Assembly: GCA_043812495.1 (NCBI GenBank)
Contig: JBDRMG010000002.1
Span: 4,890 to 68,889, forward strand
Length of the DNA: 64,000 nt
Source: Candidatus Omnitrophota bacterium
GTDB lineage: Bacteria; Omnitrophota; Gorgyraeia; Zapsychrales; JBDRMG01
Direction: 5' to 3'
The position numbers and the translations under genes are program-made. Below, piece by piece: positions 1,021 to 42,842 of the stretch (position 1 is its first letter; every line of letters begins with the position of its first letter). The notes under the pieces are model-generated. The model was given only the letters and a program-made list of their open reading frames with translations. It was not told the origin of the DNA and did not search any database.

Positions 1021-2256
1021 ATGAATAAAAAGAATTTCTCCTCATTGCTGATCGCATTGTTGGTTATCTATTGCATTATTTCCCTTGTCCCCATTTGGAA
1101 CTCTCCCTACGCAAGACAATCAGATTTTCGTATTTATTACTATAGCGCGAAACTTTTTTTTGACGGACAGAATCCGTATGACATGTGGCTATTGTGCCCT
1201 ATCATTAAGATTGCGCATTGGTGCGCGTATGCCCCGGCCGCCCTATCCTTTTATAAGCCTTTTCTTTACTTTGATTTTGAGACAGCAACCAAAGTTTTCT
1301 TAATATTAAAAATTATTCTCCTCGTTGTATTATTGACTCTATGGAAGAAATATTTCTTGAAAGAAGACGCGGATTTATTCTTCTATTTTTTTTGCGTGTT
1401 CGCCTTCCACAGCACGTTTTATATTGATTTGATTTCCGGCAATATCAATCTATTGGAACAGTGTTTGTTATGGATTGGATTTTACTACTTTCTTATTCAT
1501 CGCTATGTGTTATTCGGGGCCTTTGTCGTCGCGGCGTCCAGCTTTAAGCTGGCACCCGTCGTCTTTCTCTGGCTTTATTTCTTGTCTGATGATCCTCAAA
1601 AGTGGAAACATTTCATTATTTTCAACCTTCTATTTGTTTTGTATTTTCTTATTCAATACGCCGTGAATCCTTACCTCTTTTCTCAATATGTCAGTCGGGT
1701 TATACAAACATTACCCGATAGCGGAAGAGTCTGCCCAGCGACCCTCCCTTTTCTAAAGGATTTATTCTGGCTGATAACTAAAAATTTTAGAACAGATTTA
1801 CCGGCAGAAAGAATGAAAGAATTGGCGCATCTGGTTGCAACAGGTGTAACGGCCATTATTTCCATTACCGTGATTCTTACGACACGTAAGGCGTTGAATC
1901 TTCTGAGATCTTTATCCGCTCGGGATAAGGACAAAATTGTTTTATTTCTCTTTTGCCTACTCTATGCCCTGATTCATCCTCGATTCAAGGACTATGCCTA
2001 TATTCTGCTTATTGTCCCGTCTTACTATATTCTCAAGCGTTCTATCTCTTTTAATTTCTATCCTGTGATTCTTATTCTTCCGCTATTGGCTTTTCATTCG
2101 ACATTACCCGGATTTAGAAAATTATTTCCTCTTCTCTGGGAATACTACCCGCTTGTGATTGTTTATGGTATTTGGAGTTTATATTTGGTTCATATTTTTC
2201 GCTTCAAAGCAACTTATCTTACAGGGGAACCTAAGAAGGAAGACCATCAAACATGA
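1021..2256 (+). CDS. Polytopic membrane protein, GT-C-like (possibly DUF2029/GT87 or O-antigen ligase-like)
   Basis: About 11 predicted TM helices, aromatic-rich, no soluble domain; first gene of glycan locus. Confidence 0.45.
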   Translation: MNKKNFSSLLIALLVIYCIISLVPIWNSPYARQSDFRIYYYSAKLFFDGQNPYDMWLLCPIIKIAHWCAYAPAALSFYKPFLYFDFETATKVFLILKIILLVVLLTLWKKYFLKEDADLFFYFFCVFAFHSTFYIDLISGNINLLEQCLLWIGFYYFLIHRYVLFGAFVVAASSFKLAPVVFLWLYFLSDDPQKWKHFIIFNLLFVLYFLIQYAVNPYLFSQYVSRVIQTLPDSGRVCPATLPFLKDLFWLITKNFRTDLPAERMKELAHLVATGVTAIISITVILTTRKALNLLRSLSARDKDKIVLFLFCLLYALIHPRFKDYAYILLIVPSYYILKRSISFNFYPVILILPLLAFHSTLPGFRKLFPLLWEYYPLVIVYGIWSLYLVHIFRFKATYLTGEPKKEDHQT

Positions 2257-4193
2257 AAGGCTTCTTTAAAAAGATTGGCATTATGAACAGCCTTGATGGC
2301 ATAGCGCTTGGCTTATGTACCTTCAACTTCTTTACCTGGATAAGTCTTTTGAGTTTCAAATATTACCATTTCGGCTATTACGATTGGGATTTGGCGCTTT
2401 ATGCGCAGGTGATGTGGAGCCTGACGCAAGGGAGCGCCCATACCTCGCTGTTTGGTATGAATTTCCTGGCCAATCATTCCCAATACATTGCTTTTTTTCT
2501 TGTCCCTATTTATTTTATCTTTAAGCATCCCATGACGCTGGTCGTTCTCAAGGTCTTATCCTATTGCGTCGGCGGGTTTGTTCTTTATTTAATAGCAAAG
2601 AAGAGCCTGAAGGAGATATGGGCCATTCTTTTCATGATTCTCTATCTGTGTTATCCGGCCAATATCTTTACCCTTATCTATGAGTTTCATTTTGAAACCC
2701 TTGCGATTGGCTTGCTGTTTCTGCTTTTTTATTTTTACCAAGAAAAGAGATTTACTCCCTTTTGTATCACCATGTTTTTTGTGGGGATGATTAAAGAAAA
2801 CTTACTTTTGATTATTGTCGCGTTTGGAATTTATGCCGTCTTCTTTAGAAAAGAGCAAAAATTAAGATGGAGCCTTGTCCCCTTGATTTTTGGCTTGATT
2901 ATTTTTTACATTTCTTTGTTTGTGGTGATGCCGGCCTTGCGGGAGCAATTACCTCAAGCCAACGCGTATTTGGGGCTTTACCGTGAATTGGGAGACTCAC
3001 CAAAGACAATCGCGCAGACCATGCTTTTTTCTCCGGCAAAAATCCTCGGCAAGGTCTTTGCGTCCAGAAATGTTTTCTATATCCAAGATTTGTTTGGCCC
3101 GTTGTTTTTAACCGCTTTTTTAAGTCCGCATATACTTTTCTTGGCTTCGCCGGTCTTATTGCAGCATATGTTGTCAGCCGCTTTTCAGGAACATACTATT
3201 TATTATCATTATGCCGCAACGATTGTTCCGTTTATTTTTCTTGCGTCGATCAACTCATTGAGATTGATTAAAGAAAAATTAAGTTCGTTAACCTATCATA
3301 CCGTATTAATTGTTACTATGATTCTTTGCGTTCTTAATTCTTTGAGTTATGGCCATGTCTTTAAAGATCGCATAGCCCAATGGAACGATCCTTTTGATTC
3401 TGTGCGATGGGACATGGTCAAGAAGGTGCCGCGGGACAGATCCCTCGTGGCAACCTTAAGCTTTTTGGGCGAGCTTTCCCAGCGCGAGAATATTTTCTCT
3501 CTGCATACGGTCTGGCAAGGGGCGAATGTTTTTACCGGAAAGAAACCATATCCGAGCCCCGAGCAAGTGGACTATGCCCTCATCGACTTCGATGATCCAT
3601 GGTTAATTCATGCATGGTCTGCAAAACCGCAGAAAACAGCCGAGAATATCGGGGCTTTCTTCTCAAAAAATGATTGGCGCGTTGTAGATGCGTTTGAAAA
3701 CATTGTCTTACTGAAGAAAGATGGCCAACAGAAGGATAAGCTTCTGGAAAAGGCATCAAAGCCCTTGGCGTCAATTGATGATTCTAAGGTTCTTTCTGTG
3801 GATGAAAATTTTGAGCTCATATCTTTTAACTTAGGGAAATCCATCGTCAAGGATAAACATTTTCTTCCCTTGACATTTTCTTGGAAATGCAATCGTCCGA
3901 TCAACGCTCACTATATTATGATTTTGGTTATTAAAAAAGATAATCAGCCCATTTGGGCACGACAAAGGAGAGTCGGATATGCTTATTATCCGACAATAGC
4001 CTGGGAAGAGGGCGACTATATAAAAGAAAATTATTGGATGCTTTTACCGCCAAATATCAAGCCGGGGATATATTCGGTTGAGACGGCCTTCTTGAAGTTT
4101 GGGCAAAAGAAATGGGCGAGTCTGCTGACTGCAGATTCCAAGCGAGTCAGTCAGGATGGATTCTTTAAGCTCGGAGAGGTTAAAATTCCGTAA
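2253..4193 (+). CDS. DUF2079-like GT-C-fold membrane protein with C-terminal periplasmic domain
   Basis: N-terminal YYDWDLALYAQVMWSLTQGS resembles DUF2079 signature; about 10 TM then ~250 aa soluble region; 4-nt overlap with upstream gene. Confidence 0.5.
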   Translation: MKGFFKKIGIMNSLDGIALGLCTFNFFTWISLLSFKYYHFGYYDWDLALYAQVMWSLTQGSAHTSLFGMNFLANHSQYIAFFLVPIYFIFKHPMTLVVLKVLSYCVGGFVLYLIAKKSLKEIWAILFMILYLCYPANIFTLIYEFHFETLAIGLLFLLFYFYQEKRFTPFCITMFFVGMIKENLLLIIVAFGIYAVFFRKEQKLRWSLVPLIFGLIIFYISLFVVMPALREQLPQANAYLGLYRELGDSPKTIAQTMLFSPAKILGKVFASRNVFYIQDLFGPLFLTAFLSPHILFLASPVLLQHMLSAAFQEHTIYYHYAATIVPFIFLASINSLRLIKEKLSSLTYHTVLIVTMILCVLNSLSYGHVFKDRIAQWNDPFDSVRWDMVKKVPRDRSLVATLSFLGELSQRENIFSLHTVWQGANVFTGKKPYPSPEQVDYALIDFDDPWLIHAWSAKPQKTAENIGAFFSKNDWRVVDAFENIVLLKKDGQQKDKLLEKASKPLASIDDSKVLSVDENFELISFNLGKSIVKDKHFLPLTFSWKCNRPINAHYIMILVIKKDNQPIWARQRRVGYAYYPTIAWEEGDYIKENYWMLLPPNIKPGIYSVETAFLKFGQKKWASLLTADSKRVSQDGFFKLGEVKIP

Positions 4194-4205
4194 AGCGAGG
4201 TGTGT

Positions 4206-5090
4206 ATGACAAAACAAATCATTTATGTAGCGCAGCTTCTGCGCATGAAGCAGTGGGTCAAGAATTTCTTCATCTTTTTTCCTTTGATTTTTGCGGGCCA
4301 GTTATTTCAAATTCAATCCGCTCTCGATACATTATTGACCTTTATAGCCTTCTGCTTGATTGCAAGCGGTGTTTATGTCTTCAATGATCTCTTGGACATC
4401 GAGAAAGACCGTTTGCATCCCAAGAAATCAAAACGGCCGCTTGCCAAGGGCCATGTCCATAAACCTTTGATTATCGGACTGATTCTCTTTCTTATATTGA
4501 TCGGCTTGGGTCTGTCAAGCTGGGTGGATCATGCCATATTTGCCATCGCGTCTCTCTATGTCCTTTTACATATTATTTATAATTTTTATGCCAAGAGAGT
4601 TGTCATCGTGGATGTGATGTTTGTCGCAGCGGGGTTTCAAATCCGTATTTGGGCCGGTTCTTTGGCGGCCGGAGTTTTTCCTTCGGAATGGCTTCAGATG
4701 TGTGTTTTTCTCTTAGCATTGTACCTGGGATTTACTAAAAGACGTTATGAGCTTTCAACCCTCAAGGAAGAGGCCGCGAATCACAGAAGAGTTTTGACAC
4801 ATTATACATCGTATCTTTTGGATCAGATCATTATTATCTGCTCGACTTTAACTGTTGTTTTTTATGGGCTTTATGTCTTGTCTCCCTCGGTAACCGAACG
4901 ATTGGGCAACAGTTATATGGTCTATTCGATGGTTTTTGTGATTTATGGCGTATTCCGTTACCTTTATTTGATTCATGTCAAGAAACTCGGGGATGATCCG
5001 GGAGACGTCATTTTCGGCGATTTTCCGTTATTGTTAAGTATTTTGCTTTGGTTCAGTTACATATTGATATTGTTTTACTTTCGAACGTAA
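4206..5090 (+). CDS. UbiA-family prenyltransferase, decaprenyl-phosphate 5-phosphoribosyltransferase (DPPR synthase)-like
   Basis: NDLLDIEKDRLHPKKSKRPLAKG matches NDxxDxxxD plus KRxRPxAxG of Rv3806c-type enzymes; polytopic; ATG 4206 has GAGG SD (GTG 4200 alternative). Confidence 0.7.
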   Translation: MTKQIIYVAQLLRMKQWVKNFFIFFPLIFAGQLFQIQSALDTLLTFIAFCLIASGVYVFNDLLDIEKDRLHPKKSKRPLAKGHVHKPLIIGLILFLILIGLGLSSWVDHAIFAIASLYVLLHIIYNFYAKRVVIVDVMFVAAGFQIRIWAGSLAAGVFPSEWLQMCVFLLALYLGFTKRRYELSTLKEEAANHRRVLTHYTSYLLDQIIIICSTLTVVFYGLYVLSPSVTERLGNSYMVYSMVFVIYGVFRYLYLIHVKKLGDDPGDVIFGDFPLLLSILLWFSYILILFYFRT

Positions 5091-5118: not shown

Positions 5119-6258
5119 ATGAAAAATAACGAAATTGATCTGAAGGCAGTCCTTCTTTCTTCAGGTTCCCTGAAAATTAAGCTGATCAAACTTGCGGATT
5201 TGCTTCTGGGCACTTTGATATGCTTGTTGATCAAAGGAAGAAAATTCTATGCTCCGGAAAATCTGCCTTGTGAAAGGCTGCTTGTTATCCGGCCGGGCGG
5301 GATAGGGGATGCCGTTTTTCTCCTTCCGCTTTTGCGTGAGCTCAAAAGACAAAGGCCGAATATGAGAATCGATATTCTCTGCGAGAAAAGGAATCATCAG
5401 ATTTTTCGATCTCAAAAGGAAGTCATCAACCGAATTTTTTGCTATGATGCTTGTGGTTCTTTTCTTAGCCTTTTCCAGAATACCTACGATGTTGTGATCG
5501 ATACCGAACAATGGCATTATTTTAGTGCCCTGATTTCGTATTTCCTCAAGCCAAAATGTGCGATCGGATTCGCCACAAGACCTTTGCGCGCAAAACTTTT
5601 TCATCAGAAAATAACGCTTGAGAGCGATGCGTATGAATTGTTGAATTTTCAAAGATTATTTACTCCGGTCTGTCCGGATATTCAAAAAGTTCAAGATATT
5701 GATACCAGCTTTCTTGTGTCGAATGAAAGCCAAGAATGGGCGCGGGATAAGATTCCCGAGAAAAGCATTTCGCTTTTTTTGGGAGCCAGTATTCCGGAAC
5801 GACGTCTGACCAAAGAGCAAAGCCTGGACATCATTCGGTTTATTCTCCAAAAAAAGTATGATGTTATTATTTTGGGAGGTCGTGATGTCCGAAAAGAATG
5901 CGAGGATATTGAGCGGGAAGTCTCCGATGATCGCTTGATGAATTTTGCCGGCAAAGTCTCGCTTGAACAAAGCGCGGCTTTGATTAAACAAAGCAAAGTG
6001 TTTGTCGGGCCGGATTCCGGTCTGATGCATCTGGCCTGTGCCGTCGGCACGCCCGTTGTGGCGATTTTCGGCCCCGGAAACTTAAAAAAATGGGGGCCGA
6101 GGGGCGATCCTCATACGGTGCTTACCGAGAATGTTTCTTGCTCACCGTGCACATGTTTTGGGTATACTGTGACGACATGTAAGAAGAGTTACCCATGTAT
6201 GCGAAATTTAAATATTGAGAATCTTAAGAAAACCATTAAAAAAAAGACAATCTTATAA
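5119..6258 (+). CDS. Glycosyltransferase family 9 (ADP-heptose:LPS heptosyltransferase-like)
   Basis: LLVIRPGGIGDAVFLLPLLRELKRQRP and C-terminal GPDSGLMHLA motifs typical of RfaF/RfaC. Confidence 0.8.
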   Translation: MKNNEIDLKAVLLSSGSLKIKLIKLADLLLGTLICLLIKGRKFYAPENLPCERLLVIRPGGIGDAVFLLPLLRELKRQRPNMRIDILCEKRNHQIFRSQKEVINRIFCYDACGSFLSLFQNTYDVVIDTEQWHYFSALISYFLKPKCAIGFATRPLRAKLFHQKITLESDAYELLNFQRLFTPVCPDIQKVQDIDTSFLVSNESQEWARDKIPEKSISLFLGASIPERRLTKEQSLDIIRFILQKKYDVIILGGRDVRKECEDIEREVSDDRLMNFAGKVSLEQSAALIKQSKVFVGPDSGLMHLACAVGTPVVAIFGPGNLKKWGPRGDPHTVLTENVSCSPCTCFGYTVTTCKKSYPCMRNLNIENLKKTIKKKTIL

Positions 6259-6265
6259 TTTCTTT

Positions 6266-7465
6266 ATGGATAAAGAAGCTGGAAAAAAGATCAAAATTCT
6301 ATTTGTTTCGCACAGCGCCCGGCTTTATGGGGCAGAACAGAGTCTGCTCTTATTTCTGACACATATGGATCGGGAGCGGTTTGAGCCTGTTGTGGTCATC
6401 CCGGAGGATGGACTTCTGGCAGATAGGCTTTGCGCGCTAAAAATAAAATATTATAAGATTAGATGTCCATGGTGGATTTCCGGTCGCAGGGGAATATTTC
6501 TATTTATTCTTAAGCTGATCTACAATTTTCTCATGGAAATTTATGTGACACTCCGCTTGACAAAAGTAATTTATACTGAAAAGCCAGACCTGGTCTACAC
6601 AAATACCATGGTCATTTTATCGGGCGCACTGGCAGCTCGCTTAACTCGCAAGCCACACGTTTGGCATTTGAGAGAAATCGTCATCGGTAATCAGAATTGG
6701 CAGTCATTTCTTCCAAAAAAATATCTTTTTAGCACAATCACGAAATTGTCAAAGATTGTGCTTATCGTGTCTTATGCTGTTAAAGAACAATTTTCTTCTG
6801 ACGGGCCAGAAGGGAAATTGAATGTCGTGGGCGACGCCGTAGAACCTATGCAAAACGAATTCCCTGCTTCTGATGATCAGGATTTGGGACTTCGGGATGA
6901 TGACTGGCTTATTGCGTTTGTCGGCTCTCTTCAAAAACTCAAAGCCCCAGATATTGCCATTAAAGCCTTTTGCGATGTTAAAAAGAAGTGTCCGAAGACT
7001 AAACTTTTGATCTTTGGAACCGGCGAGTACGCCTATAAAGAATATTTACAAAAACTTGTTAACGATTGCCTGCTGGACCAAGACGTTCTATTTCTCGGAT
7101 TTCGGTCCGATATCCATAATATTTTAAAAAATTGCAAGATATCTTTGCTTTGTTCGACCATGGAAGCATTTCCCCGGGCAGTCATTGAATCAATGAGCGC
7201 GGGGCTGCCGGTTATAGGGACAAATGTCGGCGGGATAAAAGAAATTATCCAAGACGGCGTTACTGGTTTCTTGGTTCCTGTTAACGATCCCAAGAGTGTG
7301 GCCGAGAAGATCATTGAGCTTTATGGTAATGAAGAGTTGTCCAGGTGCATGGGCTTGAAAGGCCAAGAAGTCATTTCTCAGCAGTACGGCGTCGATGACT
7401 ATGTCAGAAGAATCGAAAAAGAATGCTTGCTTGCTATTGCCGGTAAGCCTGATGCTCGTTTATAA
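6266..7465 (+). CDS. Glycosyltransferase family 4
   Basis: EAFPRAVIESMSAGLPVIGTNVGGIKEII (GT4 EX7E region); start moved to ATG 6266 after the GT9 stop. Confidence 0.75.
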   Translation: MDKEAGKKIKILFVSHSARLYGAEQSLLLFLTHMDRERFEPVVVIPEDGLLADRLCALKIKYYKIRCPWWISGRRGIFLFILKLIYNFLMEIYVTLRLTKVIYTEKPDLVYTNTMVILSGALAARLTRKPHVWHLREIVIGNQNWQSFLPKKYLFSTITKLSKIVLIVSYAVKEQFSSDGPEGKLNVVGDAVEPMQNEFPASDDQDLGLRDDDWLIAFVGSLQKLKAPDIAIKAFCDVKKKCPKTKLLIFGTGEYAYKEYLQKLVNDCLLDQDVLFLGFRSDIHNILKNCKISLLCSTMEAFPRAVIESMSAGLPVIGTNVGGIKEIIQDGVTGFLVPVNDPKSVAEKIIELYGNEELSRCMGLKGQEVISQQYGVDDYVRRIEKECLLAIAGKPDARL

Positions 7466-7549
7466 TGACTATTAATTTGATATTTCAACTTTTCAACCGA
7501 TATGTATTTTTGAGAAAATCATAATCATTCAAGGAAAAGAATTCCCTCA

Positions 7550-9592
7550 ATGAGCGATCGCAGACAATTAAAAATTTTGTTTTTAACACACTGGTATCCT
7601 GATAAAACTAATCCCGTCAATGGAATTTTTATACGAGAACACGCCATAGCGGCCAATCTCTATAATGATGTTATTGTCATTTACATTGATCCGACCGAGG
7701 ATTGCAGGAAGGGTATCTGGAGAATTATTTCAGATATGACGGAAGAAGGCGTGCGTACCATCCGCATGGCTCACAGAAAAGACGGCTTTAGGCTGTTTCT
7801 TCGTTTTTATAAAGCAGCAAGCTTTCTGGGAATTGTTGAGAAATTGAGACAGGAATCTTGGCATCCGGATCTTGTCCATGCCAATGAATATGCCGTCATA
7901 TTTCCGGCATGGTTGATCGGACGAAAATATAAAATCCCCGTCATCCTTAGCGAGCATTGCAGCGAATTCCCACTAAAATTAATCAGTGGTCTTAATGCCT
8001 GGTTGGTGCGATTTTTCCTCAATCGAATTAGCAGAATATTGCCCGTCAGCAAATTCTTAGAAAATGCAATTATTTCTTATGGAATTAAGACACCCTGCGA
8101 AATTGTGCCCAATATTATCCCCAACGATATTTTTTACCCTGCCGAAGAAAAGAAATCAAGACCGACGAAAGAAATGCTTTTTGTCGGCTATCTGAAGCCG
8201 ATCAAAGGATTGCCTTTTTTGTTTCGCGCTATCGCTTCGGTTTCCAAAAAAAGGAAGGATTTTGTTTTACGAATAGTGGGAGAAGGGGAAAGAGGCGATG
8301 AATACGCGCAAATGGTGCATGATCTTGGAATCGATGATTTCGTGAAATTCGAGGGCCGTAAGACAAAACCAGAAGTAGCACAATTAATGCGTGCATGCGA
8401 TTTTCTGGTTCATCCGAGTCAAATGGAGACATTCGGCGTTACGGTCGCTGAAGCTCTGATGTGCGGGAAACCTGTCCTTGCATCGTGCTTACCGGTATTC
8501 GAAGAAAAGATCAATGCCGCTAAAGGTGTTCTGGTCCCTTATGGTGATCTAACGGCTTTAGAGAACGCCATCATATATATGCTGGATCATTCAGAAGAAT
8601 ACAATGCTGATGAAATAGCTTCTTATGCACGTCAGCATTTTGCAAGGGATGTCGTTGGAAAAGAAATTCTTGGTGTTTATGAAGATATCTGTGAGAAGAA
8701 AGTCAAAGAGTATATAGCGGAACAATATTGGGAAGAAAGACTCCAAAACAATCTATCGCTTTCGGGTGTCGGTCACCAGAATTTTTCTTTAGAATATAAT
8801 ATTTGGATGTATCGCGCAAGGATGCGCATACTCGATCAATTCCTTAGAGACAATAGGATCGATGTCCAAGGAAGGAAAATATTGGACATAGGGACGGGTA
8901 CGGGATTCTATATTGATTATTGGTTTAAGAAGCATCCAGCGTCTGTTGTCGGACTGGACATCACGGCGAAGTCCGTCGATTATTTGCGAAATAAATATCC
9001 CCAATATCGTTTTATGAAGGCAAATATCTCACAAGAAAATCTCCCCCTTGACGAGAAATTTGATGTAATCACTGCTTTTGATGTCTTATTTCACATTGTC
9101 CACGATAATGAATTTCGGCAGGCGATTCACAATATTCATCAATTATCCCATTCACAAACAGACATCTTGATCATGGATAATTTTCTTAAGGAGAACAAGG
9201 AGGTTCGTTTTCATGAGAATGACAGAACGCTAGGTGATTATAAGAAAATTCTGAAAGAGCACGACCTGGAAGTCAAAAACATAACTCCTCTATTTTATTT
9301 CTTGAACGATCCTGTCGATATCAAGGGTATTTCCGGCCGATTTGAACGTTTTTGCATAAAAACAATCTGGCGCGTCAATGTTTTTATAGCTAAAGGGAGC
9401 GGAAGGCTTAGGGTCTGCGGAAGATCTGTTTCGTACGTCTGGGCAGCTTTTCTCTATGCTTGTGATTTGATTATGCTTAAAATGCGTCCGGTCGGTCCGA
9501 GTACCAAGTTGATGTTTGCAAAGAGAATTCCCTCCCATCCTGACCATAATGCAAAAGAACGAAGTGAAAATAATAGAAAGTCATATCGGTAA
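7550..9592 (+). CDS. Fusion: GT4 glycosyltransferase (N) plus class I SAM-dependent methyltransferase (C)
   Basis: N-terminal GT4 (ETFGVTVAEALMCGKPVLAS); C-terminal ILDIGTGTGFY methyltransferase motif I. Confidence 0.75.
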   Translation: MSDRRQLKILFLTHWYPDKTNPVNGIFIREHAIAANLYNDVIVIYIDPTEDCRKGIWRIISDMTEEGVRTIRMAHRKDGFRLFLRFYKAASFLGIVEKLRQESWHPDLVHANEYAVIFPAWLIGRKYKIPVILSEHCSEFPLKLISGLNAWLVRFFLNRISRILPVSKFLENAIISYGIKTPCEIVPNIIPNDIFYPAEEKKSRPTKEMLFVGYLKPIKGLPFLFRAIASVSKKRKDFVLRIVGEGERGDEYAQMVHDLGIDDFVKFEGRKTKPEVAQLMRACDFLVHPSQMETFGVTVAEALMCGKPVLASCLPVFEEKINAAKGVLVPYGDLTALENAIIYMLDHSEEYNADEIASYARQHFARDVVGKEILGVYEDICEKKVKEYIAEQYWEERLQNNLSLSGVGHQNFSLEYNIWMYRARMRILDQFLRDNRIDVQGRKILDIGTGTGFYIDYWFKKHPASVVGLDITAKSVDYLRNKYPQYRFMKANISQENLPLDEKFDVITAFDVLFHIVHDNEFRQAIHNIHQLSHSQTDILIMDNFLKENKEVRFHENDRTLGDYKKILKEHDLEVKNITPLFYFLNDPVDIKGISGRFERFCIKTIWRVNVFIAKGSGRLRVCGRSVSYVWAAFLYACDLIMLKMRPVGPSTKLMFAKRIPSHPDHNAKERSENNRKSYR

Positions 9593-10506
9593 TGGAGGTT
9601 ATATCACGGGTGAATGATAAAGAAAAAATATTTGAAGAATTTTATCGCTTAGCTGATTTTTATTATCAACAAAACCTAATCAAAGACGCCCAGAATTATA
9701 AAAAAGACTTTTCGGCGTTCTTGCTTTATTTGCACCATATAAAGACCTATGAATTATTAGCCCCCTTTTGTCGAGATAAGACAATACTTGATATTGGGTG
9801 TTTTCTTGGATACGGAGAGCCCTATATTGCCGAAGAGGCGAAAGAGGTTATAGCCATCGATAATAACAGGGGTGCCATTAATTTTGCAAGAAACCATTAT
9901 TCTTTGCCGAATGTTGATTTTAGAGTTGTTGATGCTAAACAATTACCTTTTGAGGATGAGTCGATAGATATTGTTCTGGCCGTACAGCTCATCGAACACA
10001 TTCAGCCCGGTGAAATAGAAGATTTCCTTAAGAAAATAAAGAAATTATTGCGGAAAGACGGTCAGCTTTTGCTTGTTACGCCAAACAGGGAATTTCGCCT
10101 ACTACCATTTCAGAAGCCTTTTAATCCGGAACATTTTCAGGAGTTTACGAAGAAAACACTTCATAAATCCTTAGAAAAGATTTTTGACAAGATTGAAATT
10201 AAAGGAATTTATGCAGCAAAATGGATAGAAGAGATTGAGCGGAAACGAGTTCGACGGTCACCTTTACATTTTTATATTAATGATCCGCTAATCCGCCTTC
10301 TGCGATATATTGTTCAAAAAACGGGTATATCACAAAAGAACAATGCTTTTTTCCAAAGAAAACAAAACGATAAAGAAACAGCTTATCCTTGCTTAGAATG
10401 GGATTTTGATGGGCTCTTAGAAAAACTTAGTGACAAAGATTTTTTTATCAAAAACGAGGCATCCAAGACAGCCTTAGACTTATTTTCTCTCTGCGCTAAG
10501 GATTAA
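9592..10506 (+). CDS. Class I SAM-dependent methyltransferase
   Basis: ILDIGCFLGYG motif I, DIVLAVQLIEH; TAATG stop/start overlap. Confidence 0.75.
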   Translation: MEVISRVNDKEKIFEEFYRLADFYYQQNLIKDAQNYKKDFSAFLLYLHHIKTYELLAPFCRDKTILDIGCFLGYGEPYIAEEAKEVIAIDNNRGAINFARNHYSLPNVDFRVVDAKQLPFEDESIDIVLAVQLIEHIQPGEIEDFLKKIKKLLRKDGQLLLVTPNREFRLLPFQKPFNPEHFQEFTKKTLHKSLEKIFDKIEIKGIYAAKWIEEIERKRVRRSPLHFYINDPLIRLLRYIVQKTGISQKNNAFFQRKQNDKETAYPCLEWDFDGLLEKLSDKDFFIKNEASKTALDLFSLCAKD

Positions 10507-10519
10507 GGGGAAAGAATCA

Positions 10520-11830
10520 ATGGCCGCTTTGCTGAAAAATAGTATAAAAATATTCTTTTCCCAGGTTGCTATATTAATAGGCGGGATTATTGGTTCTATT
10601 ATTTTAGCCAGAAGCTTAGGTCCGACAGGCCGTGGTATTTATGCATTGCTCATCCTGTTTCCAACCGTTATGTCTCAGTTATGTAATTTCGGAATTGGGG
10701 AAGCCAATGTTTACTTCGTAGGAAAGGATAACCGAAATCTTAATGTTGCCGTATCCATTTCATTTCTTGGTAGCGTTGCTTTTTCCTTAGTCGCTATTTC
10801 TCTGTTGCTCACTGTATCGCGCTTTGCTTTTTTTCAGAATTTTTTAATTGAAAATCTCATTACCCCTTTTCAATTTTGGGCAGCCATCGCCGTTCTCCCT
10901 TTGTTGCTGCTGGCGGAGTATCTTAAAACTATTTTCTTAGGGAAAGAAGAAATTACGGTTTATAATGTCATAAATCTTTCTTATGCTTTTATCGGATTGA
11001 TTAGTATTGTTGTGTTTGTCTTCATGCTTGGCTTTGGTGTCAATGGGGCCCTTACTGCGTATATTCTTTCAAGCGTTACCATTGCGGCCTTAACAGTAAT
11101 TCTTTTAAGAAAAATCATCCCGGGCCATTTCCTGTTTTCCAAGAAACAACTTGCAAGCTGGATTAAATTCGGGCTGAAAGGTTACTCCGGCAATCTTGCC
11201 CAATTACTTAATTATCGTTTGGATATGTTTTTAGTTGCGTTATTCCTCAATCCGTCGGCGGTAGGCTATTACAGCATAGCCGTTGCCTTTGCGGAAGGAC
11301 TCTGGATGATTCCGAGAGCTTTAGCAACGGCATTATTTCCGAGAATATCTGCTCTGAGTAACGCAAAAACCAACGGACCTACGGCACAAATTTCCCGGCA
11401 CAATTTCTTTGTGATAGGTGTCCTTTCCCTTCTGTGCGCTCTGTTTGTGCGCCCGATGATCGGACTGCTCTTCGGAGATTTATTTCTTCCTTCTGCTCAA
11501 CCGCTGCTGATTCTGCTTCCTGGCGTTGCCATATTCGGAGGAGCGCGGGTCTTGGCCTCTGATTTGTTTGGAAGAGGAAGGCCTGAGTTTGCAAGCTTTG
11601 CCGCATTTCTTTCTTTGGTGATTAATGTGGCGCTTAATCTCTATTTGATTCCCCGGTGGGGGATATCGGGTGCTGCGTTTGCTTCAACGATGGCCTATAG
11701 CGCCGCTGCCGCGTTGATATTCGTTGCCTACAAAAAAATATCGAAAGAATCATGGAAAAACATTTTATTCATTAAGAAGAGCGATTTTTCCGATTATAAA
11801 TATTTATTGCCATTTTTGAGACGTTCATGA
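10520..11830 (+). CDS. Polysaccharide/O-antigen flippase (Wzx, MOP superfamily)
   Basis: About 12 TM, Wzx-like N-terminus, length 436 aa, inside glycosyltransferase cluster. Confidence 0.7.
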   Translation: MAALLKNSIKIFFSQVAILIGGIIGSIILARSLGPTGRGIYALLILFPTVMSQLCNFGIGEANVYFVGKDNRNLNVAVSISFLGSVAFSLVAISLLLTVSRFAFFQNFLIENLITPFQFWAAIAVLPLLLLAEYLKTIFLGKEEITVYNVINLSYAFIGLISIVVFVFMLGFGVNGALTAYILSSVTIAALTVILLRKIIPGHFLFSKKQLASWIKFGLKGYSGNLAQLLNYRLDMFLVALFLNPSAVGYYSIAVAFAEGLWMIPRALATALFPRISALSNAKTNGPTAQISRHNFFVIGVLSLLCALFVRPMIGLLFGDLFLPSAQPLLILLPGVAIFGGARVLASDLFGRGRPEFASFAAFLSLVINVALNLYLIPRWGISGAAFASTMAYSAAAALIFVAYKKISKESWKNILFIKKSDFSDYKYLLPFLRRS

Positions 11831-11863
11831 AAAATTGATATTCCTTTTTAAGGTGCGTTGAAG

Positions 11864-12790
11864 ATGTCGATCCCTTTAGTTTCGATTATTATTCCTTCTT
11901 TTAACAGAGCAAAATTACTCCAAAGAGCGATACAGAGTGTCTTGCGTCAAACATATCAGAATTTTGAGGTGATTGTTGTTGATGATGCCTCAACCGATCA
12001 TACCCGGGAAGTTGTCCTGGGTTTTTCCGACCCGCGCCTTCGCTATATACGAAATGAGAAGAACCTCAAAGGACCCCGTTCGCGCAACATCGGCATTAAG
12101 CAGGCTAGAGGCGAATACATTTCTCTTTTGGATGATGACGACGAATTCCTGCCAGAAAAAATAGAAAAAGAAGTAAATAAATTCAGAGATGCGCCAGAAG
12201 AGGTGGGAGTTGTTTATTGCGGACACTCTTTTGTCGTTAATAATAAGATTGCCAAAATAATGCTTCCGCAATACCGTGGCGATGTTTCCGAAATAACATG
12301 GCGTCATCCTGTTTTGTCTCTGCCAGCCGCATTAATCAAGAAAAAATGTTTTGAAAAATCTGGTTTATTTGATGAAACATTTGTCAGCTGTCAAGATTGG
12401 GATCTATGGATACGCGTTGCCCAGCATTGTCGATTTGATTACATCAATGAGTCTTTATTGAATGTTTATATGCACGGAGGTGAAATATCTACTAATATTC
12501 AGAATCGCGTTTTCGGTATCGAAAGAATTTTGGATAAATACGCGTATGAGTATCAGAAAAGAAAGAAAACTCACTCCTTATTGCTAAAGAGACTCGGCTT
12601 TCTTTATCTCCTTAAAGGTGATCGTCCAAAGGGGAGTCAACGTTTTAAGGAATCTTTTTGTCGCGACCCTCTGGCCCTTCGGAATTATGTTATGTTTGTG
12701 TTGCTGCTTATTTCGGGCAGATCTCAAAAGATTGCGATTGGAAAATATGCAAAATTGATTCATCAAATCGGTGATATTACGTATTTTTAA
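11864..12790 (+). CDS. Glycosyltransferase family 2
   Basis: VSIIIPSFNRAKLLQRAIQSVLRQTY..EVIVVDDASTD, DDDDEF; ATG 11864 with AAGGTG SD. Confidence 0.85.
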   Translation: MSIPLVSIIIPSFNRAKLLQRAIQSVLRQTYQNFEVIVVDDASTDHTREVVLGFSDPRLRYIRNEKNLKGPRSRNIGIKQARGEYISLLDDDDEFLPEKIEKEVNKFRDAPEEVGVVYCGHSFVVNNKIAKIMLPQYRGDVSEITWRHPVLSLPAALIKKKCFEKSGLFDETFVSCQDWDLWIRVAQHCRFDYINESLLNVYMHGGEISTNIQNRVFGIERILDKYAYEYQKRKKTHSLLLKRLGFLYLLKGDRPKGSQRFKESFCRDPLALRNYVMFVLLLISGRSQKIAIGKYAKLIHQIGDITYF

Positions 12791-12806
12791 TGGCAATGAG
12801 CCCCTT

Positions 12807-13724
12807 ATGACCCAAGAGAATAAGAAAGTTTATATTGTGATCGTCAATTGGAACAACGCTTTAGTGACAATTGAGTGTCTTCGTTCTTTGGAAAATGTCT
12901 CATATCCAAACAAAGAAATTCACTTAATCGACAACGGCTCAAGCGATGATTCGCTGAGAATATTGGAGGATTATCGGCAGCAATCGCCGATAAAAGATAT
13001 TCTAACGCTCATTTCTCTTAAGGAAAATCTAGGCTTTGCGGGAGGAAACAATGTCGGCATCAAGATGGCGCTTGAGAGGGGTGCGGAGTATGTGCTTTTA
13101 TTGAACAACGATACCATTGTTACGCCGGATTTTCTGACTCAATTGGTTCAATCGGCTCAAACAATTCAAAATCTCGGCATTCTGGGGACAAAAATCAATC
13201 ATTATCCGGATAAGGACATTATCTGGTTTTCCCGAGGGAAAATTGATTATTTTCGCGGAGCTTTTTATCACATCAATAAGGAAAGAAAAAACTTGGTCGA
13301 TTCGGATTTTATTACGGGCTGTTTGATGTTTATTCCGGCAAGCGTCCTCCAGGACGTAAACCTCTTTGACGAACGATATTTTCTCAATGCGGAAGACGTT
13401 GATTTGTCTCAAAGAATCAAGAAAGCAGGATATAAGCTTGTCGTCAATCAAGATGCTGTTATTTACCATCAATTCAGCGCAAGTATGGGTGGGATTCATT
13501 CAAAAAGAAATCAATATTATTTCCACCGAAACAGAATGCTGTTTTTTTCCAAGAATCTGTTTGGACTCAAGAAATATTTATTTTTTTGTTTTCAGTTTAT
13601 TTTAGCAATCCCAGCTTGGCTATGTATTCAATTTATTCAAGGTCATTTTGTTTCAATACAAGGGGCCTGGCTCGGCTATGTTGATTATTTCAAAGGACGA
13701 TTTGGCCGAAGTCGATATTTTTAG
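12807..13724 (+). CDS. Glycosyltransferase family 2
   Basis: YIVIVNWNN..., IDNGSSDDS, LNNDT motifs; start ambiguous (12771 alternative). Confidence 0.8.
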   Translation: MTQENKKVYIVIVNWNNALVTIECLRSLENVSYPNKEIHLIDNGSSDDSLRILEDYRQQSPIKDILTLISLKENLGFAGGNNVGIKMALERGAEYVLLLNNDTIVTPDFLTQLVQSAQTIQNLGILGTKINHYPDKDIIWFSRGKIDYFRGAFYHINKERKNLVDSDFITGCLMFIPASVLQDVNLFDERYFLNAEDVDLSQRIKKAGYKLVVNQDAVIYHQFSASMGGIHSKRNQYYFHRNRMLFFSKNLFGLKKYLFFCFQFILAIPAWLCIQFIQGHFVSIQGAWLGYVDYFKGRFGRSRYF

Positions 13725-13776
13725 TTTATTATTACATAATCTTATAAATTGTGACCCTTAATTTTCTATCCATGTA

Positions 13777-14826
13777 ATGAAAATCGTTATTCTGCGACAT
13801 TCCATTCGTAATCGAGGAGGAGACCGGTTGGTCCTCGATTATTGCTCTTATCTTGCCGCCCAAGGGCACAAAATCGAATACTGGACCAACGAAGTGAGTA
13901 CTCCCTTTCGGATTGATCAAGCCATAAGCATTAAGCGCGTTCCGATCCCCGGTATTCTTGGGACAATGATTTTTACTCTTTTTAAGAAGTTTTCAGGCGA
14001 TATTGTTCTTGTTGACCTTATTATCATGGCCTGCCTGGCTTCGTTGCGCAACAAAAAGAGAATTCTTTATTTAGCCCAGGATTACGACGTGAAATATTAC
14101 AAGTTGGGGTTACTCAAAGCCTTGACCCGTTCTTGTTATTCTTTCGGCTTGAATAAATTGCAAATTATTACGGTTTGCGTCTCAGAAGGGCTCGCGGACA
14201 TATTAAAACAATACAAGCCTAAACAGATCAAGACGGTTTCAAACGGTGTCAATTTGAGCATATTTTATCGTGATGAAAAAGGAAGATATCAAAACCAAAA
14301 AGAGCGGCCTTTTGTCATTCTTTTATTTGCCCGCTCGGATTATCGAAAAGGTTTAGATATCGGTATCAGGGCCGTTAAGGAGCTCTATAAAATCCGCCCG
14401 GGGGATGATTGGGAATTCTGGACCATCGGAACCGCAAAGGTTGAGATTCCGACTATTCCGGCGATTAGGATAAAACCATTCGGTTTCCTAAAAACGGACG
14501 AAGAACTTAAGGATATTTTTAGCGCTGCGGATGTTTATTTAGTTCCTTCAAGAAGCGAAGGACTAAGCTTACTTTTACTCCAAGCCTTGGCCAGTCAATG
14601 TGCCGTTGTCGCGACAGAAGCTTCGCATATTCTTCATCACGAAACCAATGCTCTTGTAAGCGCTAATGAAGATTGGAAAGCTCTTGCTGAAAATGTGAAC
14701 CGCGTTCTCAATGACTTTTCATTGCGAAGCAAACTAAAAGAAAATGCACGCCGATTGGCAGAGCAATACAGCCTTGAAAAAAGCTGCGAGAAGTTTGAAG
14801 AAGTTATCACATCTTTCGGCATTTAA
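13777..14826 (+). CDS. Glycosyltransferase family 4
   Basis: C-terminal SRSEGLSLLLLQALASQCAVVAT GT4 motif. Confidence 0.7.
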   Translation: MKIVILRHSIRNRGGDRLVLDYCSYLAAQGHKIEYWTNEVSTPFRIDQAISIKRVPIPGILGTMIFTLFKKFSGDIVLVDLIIMACLASLRNKKRILYLAQDYDVKYYKLGLLKALTRSCYSFGLNKLQIITVCVSEGLADILKQYKPKQIKTVSNGVNLSIFYRDEKGRYQNQKERPFVILLFARSDYRKGLDIGIRAVKELYKIRPGDDWEFWTIGTAKVEIPTIPAIRIKPFGFLKTDEELKDIFSAADVYLVPSRSEGLSLLLLQALASQCAVVATEASHILHHETNALVSANEDWKALAENVNRVLNDFSLRSKLKENARRLAEQYSLEKSCEKFEEVITSFGI

Positions 14827-15243: not shown

Positions 15244-15585
15244 ATGGAAAAGAACCAAGCTCAAACAATGGCCATGCTCTGCCATCTTCTGGCTTTGGCC
15301 GGATTCGTAATTCCTTTAGGTAATTTGCTCGGCCCGCTCATCTTATGGCAAATCAAAAAAGGCGAAGATCCCCTGATCGATGAAAACGGAAAAGAAGCTG
15401 TCAATTTTCAGATTTCTATGACCATCTATATGGCGGTCGCTTTTCTGCTTGTCTTTATCGTGATCGGCATACCTCTTTTGTTTGCTTTAGGGATTGCTAA
15501 TCTTGTCTTGGTGATCATTGCTTCGATCAAAACCAATAATGGCGAGAAGTTTGTTTATCCTTTGGCGATTCGATTGATTAAGTAA
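15244..15585 (+). CDS. DUF4870-family small membrane protein
   Basis: MAMLCHLLALAGFVIPLGNLLGPLILWQIKKGEDPLIDENGKEAV pattern typical of DUF4870. Confidence 0.6.
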   Translation: MEKNQAQTMAMLCHLLALAGFVIPLGNLLGPLILWQIKKGEDPLIDENGKEAVNFQISMTIYMAVAFLLVFIVIGIPLLFALGIANLVLVIIASIKTNNGEKFVYPLAIRLIK

Positions 15586-15798: not shown

Positions 15799-16716
15799 AT
15801 GAATTCTCATTTATCCATTTCCACAGCCTGGAATTATCAAGAAAACGGCGATATGCGTAAGATGCTTTTGGAGATGAAAGCGCTCGGCGTGCGCTTTCTA
15901 GAATTAGGCTACCAATTAAAAAAGAATGACCTGGAGAACATCATAAGCCTTTTGGATGAAGTCAATCTCTCCGTGAGCAATCTTCATAATTTTTGCCCTG
16001 TTCCTGATGATGAATCAACGAACAGGCATTATTCGGGTTATTATTATCTGACATCTCTCAATGACAATGAACGCCAAAAAGCTGTCCAATGGACCAAAAA
16101 CTCCATTGAGACTGCTGTGCGCGTTAAAGCCAAAGTTCTTGTCATTCACGCAGGCACGATCGAAGCCGGACAGAATCAAAGCCGGCAACTTTTGGATATG
16201 GTTAAGGATGGGCATGGGCAATCCGAAAATTTTCAGCGTTTGCAAAAAGAGGTTCTCGAAATTCGAAAGAAAAACAAGGATCCTTACATACAAGCTTTAA
16301 CGCAAAGTCTTAGCGAAATCATGCCTTATGCTAAGTCAAAGGGTGTCGTGATTGGCCTGGAAACACGTTACTATCCCATGGAAGTTCCAGACTTTGAAGA
16401 AATCGGTTATTGCTTGGAACTCTTTCGCGATCAGGGATTACTTTACTGGCATGATGTGGGTCACGCGGAAACGAACGAACGTTTGGGGATAACGCCGCAT
16501 TTGGATTTCCTCAATCAATACAAAAGTTCCCTGGTGGGTGTGCATTTGCACGGGATACGAGGATTAAAGGATCACCTGGCGCCTTTTGACGGGGATTTTG
16601 ATTTGACAAAAATCATGCTTTTTTTTGACGATCCTGTCATCAAAGTTATTGAGGCGCATCCGAGCGTCTCATCCCAACAGCTGCAAGAAGCTATTAAGAG
16701 GTTGTCTCTTCGATGA
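15799..16716 (+). CDS. Sugar phosphate isomerase/epimerase (xylose isomerase-like TIM barrel)
   Basis: VLVIHAG, GLETRY, HDVGHAE metal-binding pattern. Confidence 0.6.
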   Translation: MNSHLSISTAWNYQENGDMRKMLLEMKALGVRFLELGYQLKKNDLENIISLLDEVNLSVSNLHNFCPVPDDESTNRHYSGYYYLTSLNDNERQKAVQWTKNSIETAVRVKAKVLVIHAGTIEAGQNQSRQLLDMVKDGHGQSENFQRLQKEVLEIRKKNKDPYIQALTQSLSEIMPYAKSKGVVIGLETRYYPMEVPDFEEIGYCLELFRDQGLLYWHDVGHAETNERLGITPHLDFLNQYKSSLVGVHLHGIRGLKDHLAPFDGDFDLTKIMLFFDDPVIKVIEAHPSVSSQQLQEAIKRLSLR

Positions 16717-16920: not shown

Positions 16921-17379
16921 ATGAACCTATATCTTGTCCGCCACGGCGAAGCCGAAGCGGAACACATTGATCCCAAACACCCTTTGACCCAAAAAGGCCG
17001 GGAAGATGTCCGCAAGGTCGCTCATCAACTTAAAGAAAGAAATATCAGCGTTCCTGTGATTTACCATAGCGGAAAGAAAAGGGCGGAAGAGACCGCGCAA
17101 ATTATCGCTCAAACAATTAATCCAGAATGCCGGCTGGTCAAGAAGAACAATCTTTCGCCTAATGATGCGATTGAACCCATGGTTCAGGAAATTCAACAGT
17201 TAACGCAAGATTGCATGATTGTCGGGCACTTGCCTTTTGTTTCGAAATTAGCGTCCCAGATTCTCTGCGGTCATGAAGAAAGAAAAGTGATTCCCTTTCG
17301 GGCCGGTTGTGCGGCGATCCTGACTAGAGAAAAGGAAGAATGCTGGGAACTTAAGGAAATCATTTCCCCTTTTATGTGA
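16921..17379 (+). CDS. sixA: Phosphohistidine phosphatase SixA
   Basis: LYLVRHGEAE RHG motif, GHLP near C-terminus, 152 aa. Confidence 0.8.
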   Translation: MNLYLVRHGEAEAEHIDPKHPLTQKGREDVRKVAHQLKERNISVPVIYHSGKKRAEETAQIIAQTINPECRLVKKNNLSPNDAIEPMVQEIQQLTQDCMIVGHLPFVSKLASQILCGHEERKVIPFRAGCAAILTREKEECWELKEIISPFM

Positions 17380-42356: not shown

Positions 42357-42842
42357 ATGAAAGCTCAGATTGCGATTGTTATGGGAAGCGCATCCGACAT
42401 GCCGACTATGAAAGAAGCTGCTTTGCTTTTAAAAGAATTTAATGTTGCCTTTGAAATGAAAGTTCTTTCGGCGCACCGCGTTCCTGATCAAACCGCTAGC
42501 TTCGCCAAAAATCTCAAGAAACGGGATATTAAAATTGTGATCGCGGGTGCCGGAGGCTCAGCGGCCTTAGCGGGATTCATTGCGAGCCTTACGCCACTGC
42601 CCGTCATCGGGATTCCCATTGAAACATCTTCGCTCAATGGTTTGGATTCTTTATTATCGACCGTGCAAATGCCGTCCGGTGTTCCGGTGGGTACGGTGGC
42701 GATCGGAAAATCCGGCGCGAAAAACGCAGCCCTCTTGGCCTTAAGGATTCTTGGTTTGTCGGATAGAAAAATCCAGGAAAAGTTAGAAAAATACAAGAAA
42801 CAAAGGGCTGAGCAAATCCTCAAGACAAAGGTTAAAATTTGA
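42357..42842 (+). CDS. purE: N5-carboxyaminoimidazole ribonucleotide mutase
   Basis: IAIVMGSASDMPTMKEAALLLKEF, AGGSAALAG canonical PurE. Confidence 0.95.
   Translation: MKAQIAIVMGSASDMPTMKEAALLLKEFNVAFEMKVLSAHRVPDQTASFAKNLKKRDIKIVIAGAGGSAALAGFIASLTPLPVIGIPIETSSLNGLDSLLSTVQMPSGVPVGTVAIGKSGAKNAALLALRILGLSDRKIQEKLEKYKKQRAEQILKTKVKI

Follow-up and report, generated by a model that had tools for sequence, protein, structure and literature searches.

A 64-kb window (the whole stretch of DNA analysed here) from a contig of ~70 kb (JBDRMG010000002.1) in an incomplete metagenome-assembled genome (MAG) of a Candidatus Omnitrophota bacterium (GCA_043812495.1) carries, at 1021 to 5090, genes for a membrane protein of glycosyltransferase family GT87, a membrane protein of family DUF2079 (PF09852) and a UbiA-fold polyprenyl-phosphate 5-phosphoribosyltransferase (PPPRS). 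Our analysis, which was entirely computational, leads us to favour, with moderate confidence, the view that this is a lipid-linked pentofuranose glycosylation module fed by phosphoribosyl pyrophosphate (PRPP), of the kind described by Kelly et al. in 2024. The identity of the synthase is strongly supported by sequence, and the DUF2079 gene is consistently linked to it in related genomes. The genes and the elements discussed within them are as follows.

1021-2256, + strand: GT87-family protein of the GT-C class (PimE-like), first gene of the operon, 411 aa (assigned by Pfam, profile and fold)
2253-4193, + strand: DUF2079 (PF09852) membrane protein of GT-C fold with periplasmic domains, 646 aa; proposed pentofuranosyltransferase
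2370-2396, + strand: FGYYDWDLA motif after the first transmembrane helix (TM1) of the DUF2079 protein, with the candidate catalytic acids D44 and D46 (homologue alignment)
3735-4190, + strand: C-terminal beta-sandwich of the DUF2079 protein, residues ~495-646; putative glycan-binding module (structural model)
4200-5090, + strand: UbiA-fold protein of the PPPRS or decaprenyl-phosphate phosphoribosyltransferase (DPPR synthase) type, 296 aa
4383-4451, + strand: NDLLDIEKD...KSKRP loop of the UbiA-fold protein, Mg2+/PRPP-binding motif (correspondence with Rv3806c)
895-1020, + strand: AT-rich intergenic stretch 5' of the module; presumed promoter region

The stop codon of the GT87 gene overlaps the start codon of the DUF2079 gene (ATGA), and the gap between the DUF2079 and UbiA-fold genes is 6-12 nt; NCBI starts the latter gene at the ATG at 4206, giving a protein of 294 aa. 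Because of this overlap and close spacing, the three genes are the head of one operon. The three open reading frames (ORFs) have hundreds of homologues, and the three proteins match NCBI entries on the 69,994-bp contig with 100% identity; they are real protein-coding genes, not chance matches. The 126-nt gap between the preceding TtcA-like gene (145-894) and the GT87 gene holds a TTGTTA...TATAAT-like sequence. A scan for promoter and terminator consensus sequences showed no enrichment over shuffled sequence, and tRNA and Rfam searches gave no matches.

The UbiA-fold protein

The UbiA-fold protein scores 87.3 bits against Pfam UbiA (cut-off 34.2) and 252.6 bits against NCBIfam NF008977, the decaprenyl-phosphate phosphoribosyltransferase model, for which the curated cut-off is 234. 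Against the NCBIfam models for 4-hydroxybenzoate, heme O, archaeal-lipid and EboC-type prenyltransferases it scores at most 47 bits. Its sole relative in the PDB is the mycobacterial DPPR synthase Rv3806c (8j8j), to which it aligns over the full length (E 9e-27, 28.9% identity). The peptide NDLLDIEKDRLHPKKSKRPLAKG, on which the original prediction had based a likeness to Rv3806c, is encoded at 4383-4451, and its translation was verified.

The cryo-EM study of Rv3806c assigns residues to Mg2+, to the pyrophosphate of PRPP (a K/R cluster), to the ribose, to the 5-phosphate and to decaprenyl phosphate, and reports that the phosphoribose site is absent from UbiA enzymes that use prenyl diphosphates (PMC10994848). 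Twelve of 15 such functional residues are identical in the window protein (R22, K28, Y70, N73, D74, D77, D81, K87, R90, Y138, K143 and K191 of Rv3806c) and the remaining three are replaced conservatively (Q135 by H, Y157 by F and K208 by R); Phe at position 157 is also found in some mycobacteria (PMC10994848). The Mg2+ motif N-D-x-x-D-x-x-x-D is kept as N62, D63, D66 and D70, corresponding to Rv3806c N73, D74, D77 and D81, as is the K/R cluster for the pyrophosphate (R15, K76, R79 and K132, corresponding to R22, K87, R90 and K143). Of the ribose and 5-phosphate residues, K21 and Y59 are identical to Rv3806c K28 and Y70, and the replacements of Q135 and Y157 fall here. In an alignment of 120 homologues the key Rv3806c-equivalent residues are invariant or nearly so. 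The 296-aa protein has no extra (phosphatase) domain.

The protein belongs to the UbiA superfamily and some of its homologues are labelled '4-hydroxybenzoate polyprenyltransferase' by JGI, which could be read as an aromatic, quinone or heme prenyltransferase of the MenA, UbiA or CyoE type, unrelated to glycans. We rejected this identity: the quinone, heme and archaeal-lipid scores are far below the DPPR synthase score, no other UbiA-family structure was matched in the PDB, the PRPP-specific residues are present and the gene sits in a glycan locus. This alternative is effectively refuted. Family scores, PDB match and residues all side with the DPPR synthases, as the original prediction had proposed, and by sequence the protein groups with the DPPR/PPPR synthases and agrees with that family in each feature that could be checked, rather than with MenA, UbiA or heme O synthases.

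The DUF2079 protein

The 2253-4193 protein matches Pfam DUF2079 with 153 bits against a cut-off of 28.2. We found no functional study of DUF2079/PF09852 in the literature, and the family profile matched no PDB sequence. With 68 homologues as input, AlphaFold2 gave a model with a pLDDT of 94.4 and a pTM of 0.93. In structure comparisons, which were made with Foldseek against the PDB, its top 13 matches are all GT-C enzymes (probability 1.0, E 2e-5 to 1e-3, TM-score 0.33-0.50) and include STT3/OST, ArnT with bound undecaprenyl phosphate (5f15), AglB, PglB, ALG9 and ALG12. The protein has about 10 hydrophobic segments. TM1 comprises residues 13-38 and YYDWDLA follows directly. Across the 68 homologues D46, H75 and E182 are invariant and D44 is present in at least 90%; all four are kept in every full-length Omnitrophota copy, including both members of tandem pairs. 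By alignment and model, the motif lies at the position after TM1 where GT-C enzymes carry their catalytic acid, which makes D44 and D46 the candidates for this role. The model points to a GT-C-fold glycosyltransferase with a D-x-D in its first periplasmic loop, and the membrane proteins, which had been called GT-C-like in the original prediction, both hold up as such by Pfam family (DUF2079 and GT87) and predicted fold.

Residues ~495-646 are all-beta in the model and resemble the Ig-like folds of NPC2, MD-2 and RhoGDI in Foldseek. They also match the O-antigen-binding carbohydrate-binding module (CBM) of Wzt (8dky/6o14, E ~1e-2, TMt ~0.48). This domain, which is missing from DUF2079 orthologues of ~490 aa, probably binds glycan, to judge from the model.

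Conservation of the DUF2079-synthase pair

Species-representative genomes were scanned with the UbiA alignment, and at least 424 contain close relatives of the synthase. The best 80 of these were analysed; ORFs were called in all loci and searched with family hidden Markov models. Within the best 80, identities to the window synthase are at least 51% for Omnitrophota and 39-45% for the others (Zixibacteria, Binatia, Ignavibacteria, Margulisbacteria, Myxococcota, Chloroflexota and others).

In 17 of the 20 Omnitrophota loci with usable upstream sequence, the gene directly upstream of the UbiA-fold gene is a DUF2079 gene on the same strand, and the two often overlap. Six of these loci have tandem DUF2079 copies upstream of UbiA, at positions -2 and -1 (loci L008, L009, L012, L013, L015 and L016). 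That both tandem paralogues have their residues intact suggests two distinct transfers from one donor. In 12 of 24 Omnitrophota loci a GT9 gene follows one to three genes after UbiA, and a thirteenth locus has one at another place in its flank. The pair typically has a conserved housekeeping block (FtsH-FolP-DacA-PdxJ-AcpS-carbohydrate kinase-QueH) on one side and a polysaccharide cluster of variable content on the other. Of the two GT-C genes, DUF2079 alone shows consistent linkage to the synthase; among 84 loci of this UbiA clade, GT87 occurs only in the window. Of the module claimed in the original prediction, a UbiA protein with two GT-C proteins, the DUF2079 part is thus borne out across loci but the GT87 part is confined to the window.

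Outside Omnitrophota the DUF2079 subfamily was not found adjacent to synthase homologues. In Ignavibacteria the synthase homologues lie beside exosortase genes. Loci L035-L084, mostly from Chloroflexota/Anaerolineae, show a recurrent order of TlyA-like methyltransferase, UbiA, GHMP kinase and amino-acid-kinase-family gene with no adjacent GT-C, and several of their synthase homologues are longer ORFs that may be fusions or have over-extended starts. Synthase homologues are also found in archaea with 33-42% identity, in a Methanosarcinales MAG (L058) and on haloarchaeal megaplasmids (matches H5, H6, H8 and H26, from Natronococcus, Haloterrigena and Halostagnicola); three of the four plasmid genes have an annotation, which is DPPR synthase in two cases and UbiA-family protein in the other. 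A further homologue (L092:898-1773, 37% identity), the only one matched among phage records, is encoded on a 6.6-kb unverified bacteriophage contig from human faeces (MT837543.1), which fits the suggestion of Kelly et al. that such modules are carried by phages as seroconversion modules (PMC11127046).

The GT87 protein

The 1021-2256 protein scores 35.4 bits against Pfam GT87 (PF09594; cut-off 25). Its family profile matches only PimE in the PDB (9dm5, E 8e-7, ~16% identity), and the family-invariant D35 aligns with PimE D58, which we take to be the catalytic residue of that enzyme. The AlphaFold2 model (pLDDT 87.4) has PimE as its best Foldseek match (TM-score 0.63-0.72), followed by the dolichyl-phosphate-mannose (Dol-P-Man)-dependent glycosylphosphatidylinositol (GPI) mannosyltransferase I and ALG6. 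PimE itself depends on polyprenyl-phosphate-mannose; the acceptor of the window protein, unlike that of PimE, cannot be a phosphatidylinositol mannoside.

A GT87-family domain occurs together with a PPPRS on an Azospirillum oryzae plasmid (NZ_CP054616.1, L089:7982-10879), where a single 965-aa protein (WP_149199112.1) comprises GT87 (101-347), HAD phosphatase (498-606) and UbiA/PPPRS (705-930) domains. The next gene encodes a 124-aa EamA-family transporter, so that effectively the whole pentofuranose pathway is present in one polypeptide plus a flippase. This fusion is an independent 'Rosetta stone' pairing GT87-type enzymes with the donor. Comparison of the window GT87 subfamily with the GT87 domain of the fusion by hhalign and hmmsearch gave nothing significant. 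Because of this result the fusion is a precedent at the level of the family only: it shows that enzymes of the GT87 family can be devoted to this donor. We also take AftC, a mycobacterial enzyme that uses decaprenyl-phosphate arabinose, to be classed in GT87.

Comparison with known lipid-linked pentose systems

In Citrobacter youngae O1, alpha-ribofuranose side chains are added to the O antigen in the periplasm, as shown biochemically (Kelly, Duong, Nothof, Lowary, Whitfield, PNAS 2024, PMC11127046). The parts are ORF15, a PPPRS homologous to Rv3806c and fused to a HAD phosphoribose phosphatase (PPPRS-PRP); ORF14, a small flippase; and ORF12, the GT-C that founded GT136, in which a small periplasmic domain follows the first of 11 TM helices and an Ig-like CBM forms the C-terminus (PMC11127046). 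One additional epimerase of the short-chain dehydrogenase/reductase (SDR) type switches the sugar from ribofuranose to xylofuranose, the GT-C being promiscuous, and DprE1/DprE2 homologues accompany the arabinofuranose systems (PMC11127046). Such three-component systems are widespread and include some whose glycans have unknown structures (PMC11127046).

Like C. youngae O1, the window has a PRPP-dependent Rv3806c homologue of UbiA fold as synthase and a polytopic GT-C whose TM bundle and C-terminal beta-sandwich parallel those of ORF12; both sets of genes lie in an O-antigen-type locus without an epimerase, from which ribofuranose is predicted. The scheme, here predicted from genes, would also be the same: polyprenyl phosphate charged in the cytoplasm and the sugar transferred in the periplasm. 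In contrast with C. youngae O1, the window synthase stands alone, with no fused HAD phosphoribose phosphatase and no adjacent small flippase; GT87 is co-transcribed as a second GT-C; and in many Omnitrophota the place of the pair in the genome is conserved, whereas the Citrobacter genes are a serotype-specific accessory. The GT-C also differs, being DUF2079 where ORF12 is described as EpsG-like in CDD. DUF2079 is the only Pfam match of the window protein (EpsG gave none at E<=0.01), and it was unmatched to the GT-C candidates of five comparator PPPRS loci. Set apart by the CDD description of ORF12, it probably belongs outside GT136. The window holds the core of a system of this kind, a PPPRS and a GT-C in a glycan locus, and lacks the linked phosphatase and flippase.

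The original prediction described the module as mycobacterial-type. The synthase is indeed a full-length Rv3806c homologue with the same catalytic and PRPP residues, both systems have GT-C enzymes as users of the product, and GT87 also has a mycobacterial member in PimE. The mycobacterial decaprenyl-phospho-arabinose pathway, however, comprises Rv3806c, Rv3807c, DprE1/DprE2 and the Emb and Aft GT-Cs; the window synthase has only the 28.9% identity given above, and the window has no PAP2 phosphatase and no DprE1/DprE2, comes from a Gram-negative-type organism with a lipopolysaccharide (LPS)-like locus, has DUF2079 rather than GT53, GT85 or GT89, and encodes an enzyme that probably decorates a glycan where the mycobacterial enzymes polymerise arabinan. 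Because DprE1/DprE2 and the PAP2 phosphatase are absent, the module is not the mycobacterial arabinose pathway, and the Citrobacter-type ribofuranose side-chain system is the better fit. Nor does the description of the pathway as unusual stand, given its match to the widespread systems of Kelly et al. (PMC11127046) and the number of genomes with close relatives of the synthase.

The arabinofuranose modules of Proteobacteria and Bacteroidota likewise have a homologous synthase (32-39% identity) clustered with polytopic GT-C candidates. Unlike the window, they carry a phosphatase, a flippase and an epimerase pair beside the synthase, and their GT-C candidates were unmatched to the Omnitrophota DUF2079 or GT87 profiles. 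The plasmid-borne comparators agree with the scheme of Kelly et al.: those of Rhizobium and Cereibacter have a HAD-UbiA fusion, GtrA, an FAD oxidoreductase, an SDR and a polytopic protein; that of Chondrinema has a PPPRS, an FAD oxidoreductase, an SDR and GT39-like proteins; and that of Lactococcus has a polytopic protein, a PPPRS, a HAD-IB phosphatase and GtrA. Finally, ArnT (GT83), whose undecaprenyl-phosphate complex is among the best structural matches of DUF2079, delivers the pentose of a polyprenyl-phosphate donor to LPS on the periplasmic side, the same scheme as proposed for DUF2079. The ArnT donor is made by a GT2 enzyme (ArnC) from a UDP-sugar and not from PRPP, and ArnT has no detectable sequence similarity to DUF2079.

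The glycan locus and missing partners

The operon continues on the + strand with the following genes.

5119-6258, + strand: GT9, heptosyltransferase family (Pfam Glyco_transf_9, 101.5 bits)
6215-7465, + strand: GT4 (Pfam)
7550-9592, + strand: GT4 fused to a class I S-adenosylmethionine-dependent methyltransferase, 680 aa (Pfam)
9592-10506, + strand: standalone methyltransferase (Pfam)
10520-11830, + strand: Wzx-like MOP flippase, 436 aa (Pfam)
11858-12790, + strand: GT2 (Pfam)
12771-13724, + strand: GT2 (Pfam)
13777-14826, + strand: GT4 (Pfam)

These GT9, GT4, GT2, methyltransferase and Wzx-like genes make this a glycan locus of the LPS/O-antigen type, in agreement with the original prediction, in which the ORFs, their order, the quoted peptide and the downstream genes had all been placed correctly. 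The genes from 6215 to 14826 probably build the acceptor glycan. One of the two GT2 proteins is TuaG/WcaA-like and the other is rhamnosyltransferase-like, and neither resembled a polyprenyl-phosphate-sugar synthase in Pfam or NCBIfam searches; the PPPRS is the sole recognisable lipid-linked monosaccharide synthase predicted in the operon. The GT4-methyltransferase fusion and the second methyltransferase predict a methylated sugar in the glycan.

Partners of the synthase were sought in the window with Pfam, applied to ORFs of at least 150 aa (minus three short ones in the last 7 kb) and the main smaller ORFs of the first 16 kb, and with phmmer, applied to all six-frame ORFs of at least 50 aa. 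The phmmer probes came from complete comparator modules (DprE1-like FAD oxidoreductase, SDR, HAD-IB phosphatase and GtrA). Probes made from the comparator GT-Cs and from the c61 and c27 proteins of Omnitrophota likewise had no window match. As the original prediction had stated, no DprE1/DprE2-like gene is present in the window by either method, and the 84 loci of the UbiA clade have no DprE1-like gene within 10 kb either. The only transporter in the glycan locus is the Wzx-like MOP protein; a small membrane protein, of family DUF4870, is encoded at 15244-15585. SixA (His_Phos_1, 16921-17379) and a xylose-isomerase-like TIM-barrel protein (15799-16716) were considered for the role of the missing phosphatase or epimerase, and both were rejected for lack of support.

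HAD-like genes are found in a few related Omnitrophota loci. A HAD-like protein of 250 aa (three loci) and a soluble protein of ~455 aa with no Pfam match (five loci) recur near the DUF2079-UbiA pair, often adjacent to each other (L008:4901-7001, L012:10816-12971, L009:12157-14354, L016:11629-12996 and L011:41-1186). Neither is encoded in the window. The recurrent HAD-like protein is a candidate phosphoribose phosphatase.

Proposed pathway and alternatives

We propose that the synthase, with its active site facing the cytoplasm, would transfer ribose-5-phosphate from PRPP to polyprenyl phosphate to give polyprenyl-phosphate-ribofuranose-5-phosphate, a step with strong sequence support. A phosphatase encoded elsewhere would then strip the 5-phosphate, and a flippase would bring the lipid-linked ribofuranose to the periplasmic face. 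There, on the basis of fold, acidic motif and gene linkage, the DUF2079 protein is predicted to move the pentofuranose onto a surface glycan, most likely the LPS core or O-chain built by the adjacent GT9, GT4, GT2, methyltransferase and Wzx genes. The translationally coupled GT87 protein would be a second periplasmic GT-C, which may either add another pentofuranose or use a polyprenyl-phosphate-hexose made elsewhere, with about equal likelihood. Neither the window nor the 84 related loci have an epimerase linked to the synthase, which makes D-ribofuranose the most likely sugar, though the genome is incomplete.

Several observations weigh against this proposal. No 5-phosphatase (HAD phosphoribose phosphatase or PAP2) was found in the window by Pfam or with the HAD-IB phmmer probe, and no small flippase (GtrA, SMR or EamA), the GtrA probe also returning nothing; in comparator systems both adjoin the synthase. 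Chloroflexota synthase homologues (40-45% identity) lie beside TlyA, GHMP kinase and amino-acid-kinase-family genes. The closest solved structure and the homologue contexts of GT87 point to polyprenyl-phosphate-hexose donors. When we sampled from the DUF2079 side, one of three homologues had the same DUF2079-UbiA-GT9-Wzx order, and the other two, which are more divergent, had no UbiA within 6 kb; Streptomyces DUF2079 genes are likewise unlinked to a synthase. The linkage is therefore asymmetric, and the DUF2079 family as a whole is not bound to this donor.

The alternative that takes up these last points is that DUF2079 and UbiA are adjacent by synteny and functionally uncoupled, DUF2079 using another lipid-linked donor or acting as a polymerase or ligase while the product of the synthase feeds a different acceptor pathway. 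The pair does lie at the conserved housekeeping boundary described above, and DUF2079 has no characterised member. In Ca. Aceula meridiana (GCA_030765185.1) a DUF2079 gene (L097:6001-7869) occupies the same syntenic slot, after FtsH-FolP-DacA-PdxJ-AcpS-carbohydrate kinase, but the next gene encodes a methyltransferase-GT2 fusion and not UbiA. Coupling of DUF2079 to the synthase is therefore not universal, and DUF2079 occurs without UbiA elsewhere too. We nevertheless think this alternative unlikely. In most loci the two genes are on the same strand in overlapping or near-overlapping frames, no other candidate consumer of the donor lies beside the synthase in 17 of 20 loci, and the DUF2079 fold and acidic motif are those of a GT-C of the type dependent on lipid-phosphate sugars, such as ArnT. 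A second alternative, which we judge to be equally improbable, keeps the module and changes the sugar: polyprenyl-phosphate-ribose could be epimerised by enzymes encoded elsewhere, to arabinofuranose by a DprE1/DprE2-type pair or to xylofuranose by an SDR. The full arabinofuranose set adjoins the synthase in other phyla, and in the Citrobacter-type system a single gene is enough to change the sugar. Against this, comparator epimerase genes adjoin the synthase and there is none in the window or within 10 kb in the 84 UbiA-clade loci. The original prediction that the donor is ribose or another pentose rather than arabinose is in line with the lack of DprE1/DprE2 in the window, but absence from 64 kb of an incomplete MAG cannot settle ribose against arabinose or xylose.

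The alternative that comes closest to an even chance, falling only a little short of it, concerns GT87 alone. In this case the protein would stand outside the pentose module as a PimE-like enzyme that modifies the LPS core on its own, with a polyprenyl-phosphate hexose such as mannose supplied by a GT2 synthase encoded at an unlinked site. No GT87 homologue was found in the 83 other UbiA loci sampled. In the two contexts of GT87 homologues that we sampled, one gene lies among lipid A/core genes (L087) and the other directly follows an AglJ/PpgS/DPM-like GT2 gene (L088), with no UbiA gene near either, and the closest structures are PimE and Dol-P-Man-dependent enzymes. Conversely, the GT87 stop codon overlaps the DUF2079 start codon, the gene fills the slot held by a second DUF2079 in six related loci, no polyprenyl-phosphate-hexose synthase is recognisable in the locus, and the Azospirillum fusion shows that a GT87-family enzyme is able to partner the synthase.

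Going beyond the proposed module in the window, DUF2079 may be an unrecognised GT-C family that uses polyprenyl-phosphate-pentofuranose and forms, with a standalone PPPRS, a minimal two-gene module at a fixed chromosomal position in many Omnitrophota. Ribofuranose (or ribose-5-phosphate, if no phosphatase acts) would then be a core feature of the Omnitrophota LPS or envelope, not a variable serotype decoration, installed without a dedicated flippase or phosphatase. We put this forward tentatively, with distinctly less confidence than the module itself.

Other genes of the window

The remainder of the window is occupied by housekeeping genes, including those for purine biosynthesis, RpiB, a polyprenyl synthetase and RNA-modification enzymes. 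Within the purine-biosynthesis run, a 325-aa ORF with an IS200-like Y1 transposase domain (41213-42190, + strand) lies between purD-like (39486-40775) and purE-like (42357-42842) genes. At 43040-44562 (+ strand) a 356-aa protein joins a Sua5/YciO/YrdC domain to a low-molecular-weight phosphotyrosine phosphatase domain; the gene that directly follows, in an overlapping frame, is for an RpiB-type ribose-5-phosphate isomerase. A 290-aa protein encoded at 48502-49374 (+ strand) fuses a Macro domain to a NUDIX hydrolase domain, which suggests ADP-ribose processing.

Implications

The concept of the pathway is already published and the genes are individually annotated by NCBI; the pathway itself would not come as a surprise to a specialist. 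As far as our literature searches show, the conserved DUF2079-PPPRS pairing in Omnitrophota, the function that it implies for DUF2079 and the stripped-down architecture are undescribed. The functional prediction for DUF2079 is concrete and testable. If the proposal is true, it would give a sizeable DUF family, none of whose members has been characterised or solved, a first function that can be tested: the transfer of pentofuranose from a lipid donor derived from PRPP. It would also mean that the pathway can exist in a stripped-down form comprising a synthase and a GT-C only, and would leave removal of the 5-phosphate and flipping of the donor to be explained. Finally, it would extend the pentofuranose side-chain pathway to an uncultured phylum, and D-ribofuranose would be predicted on the cell surface of Omnitrophota.

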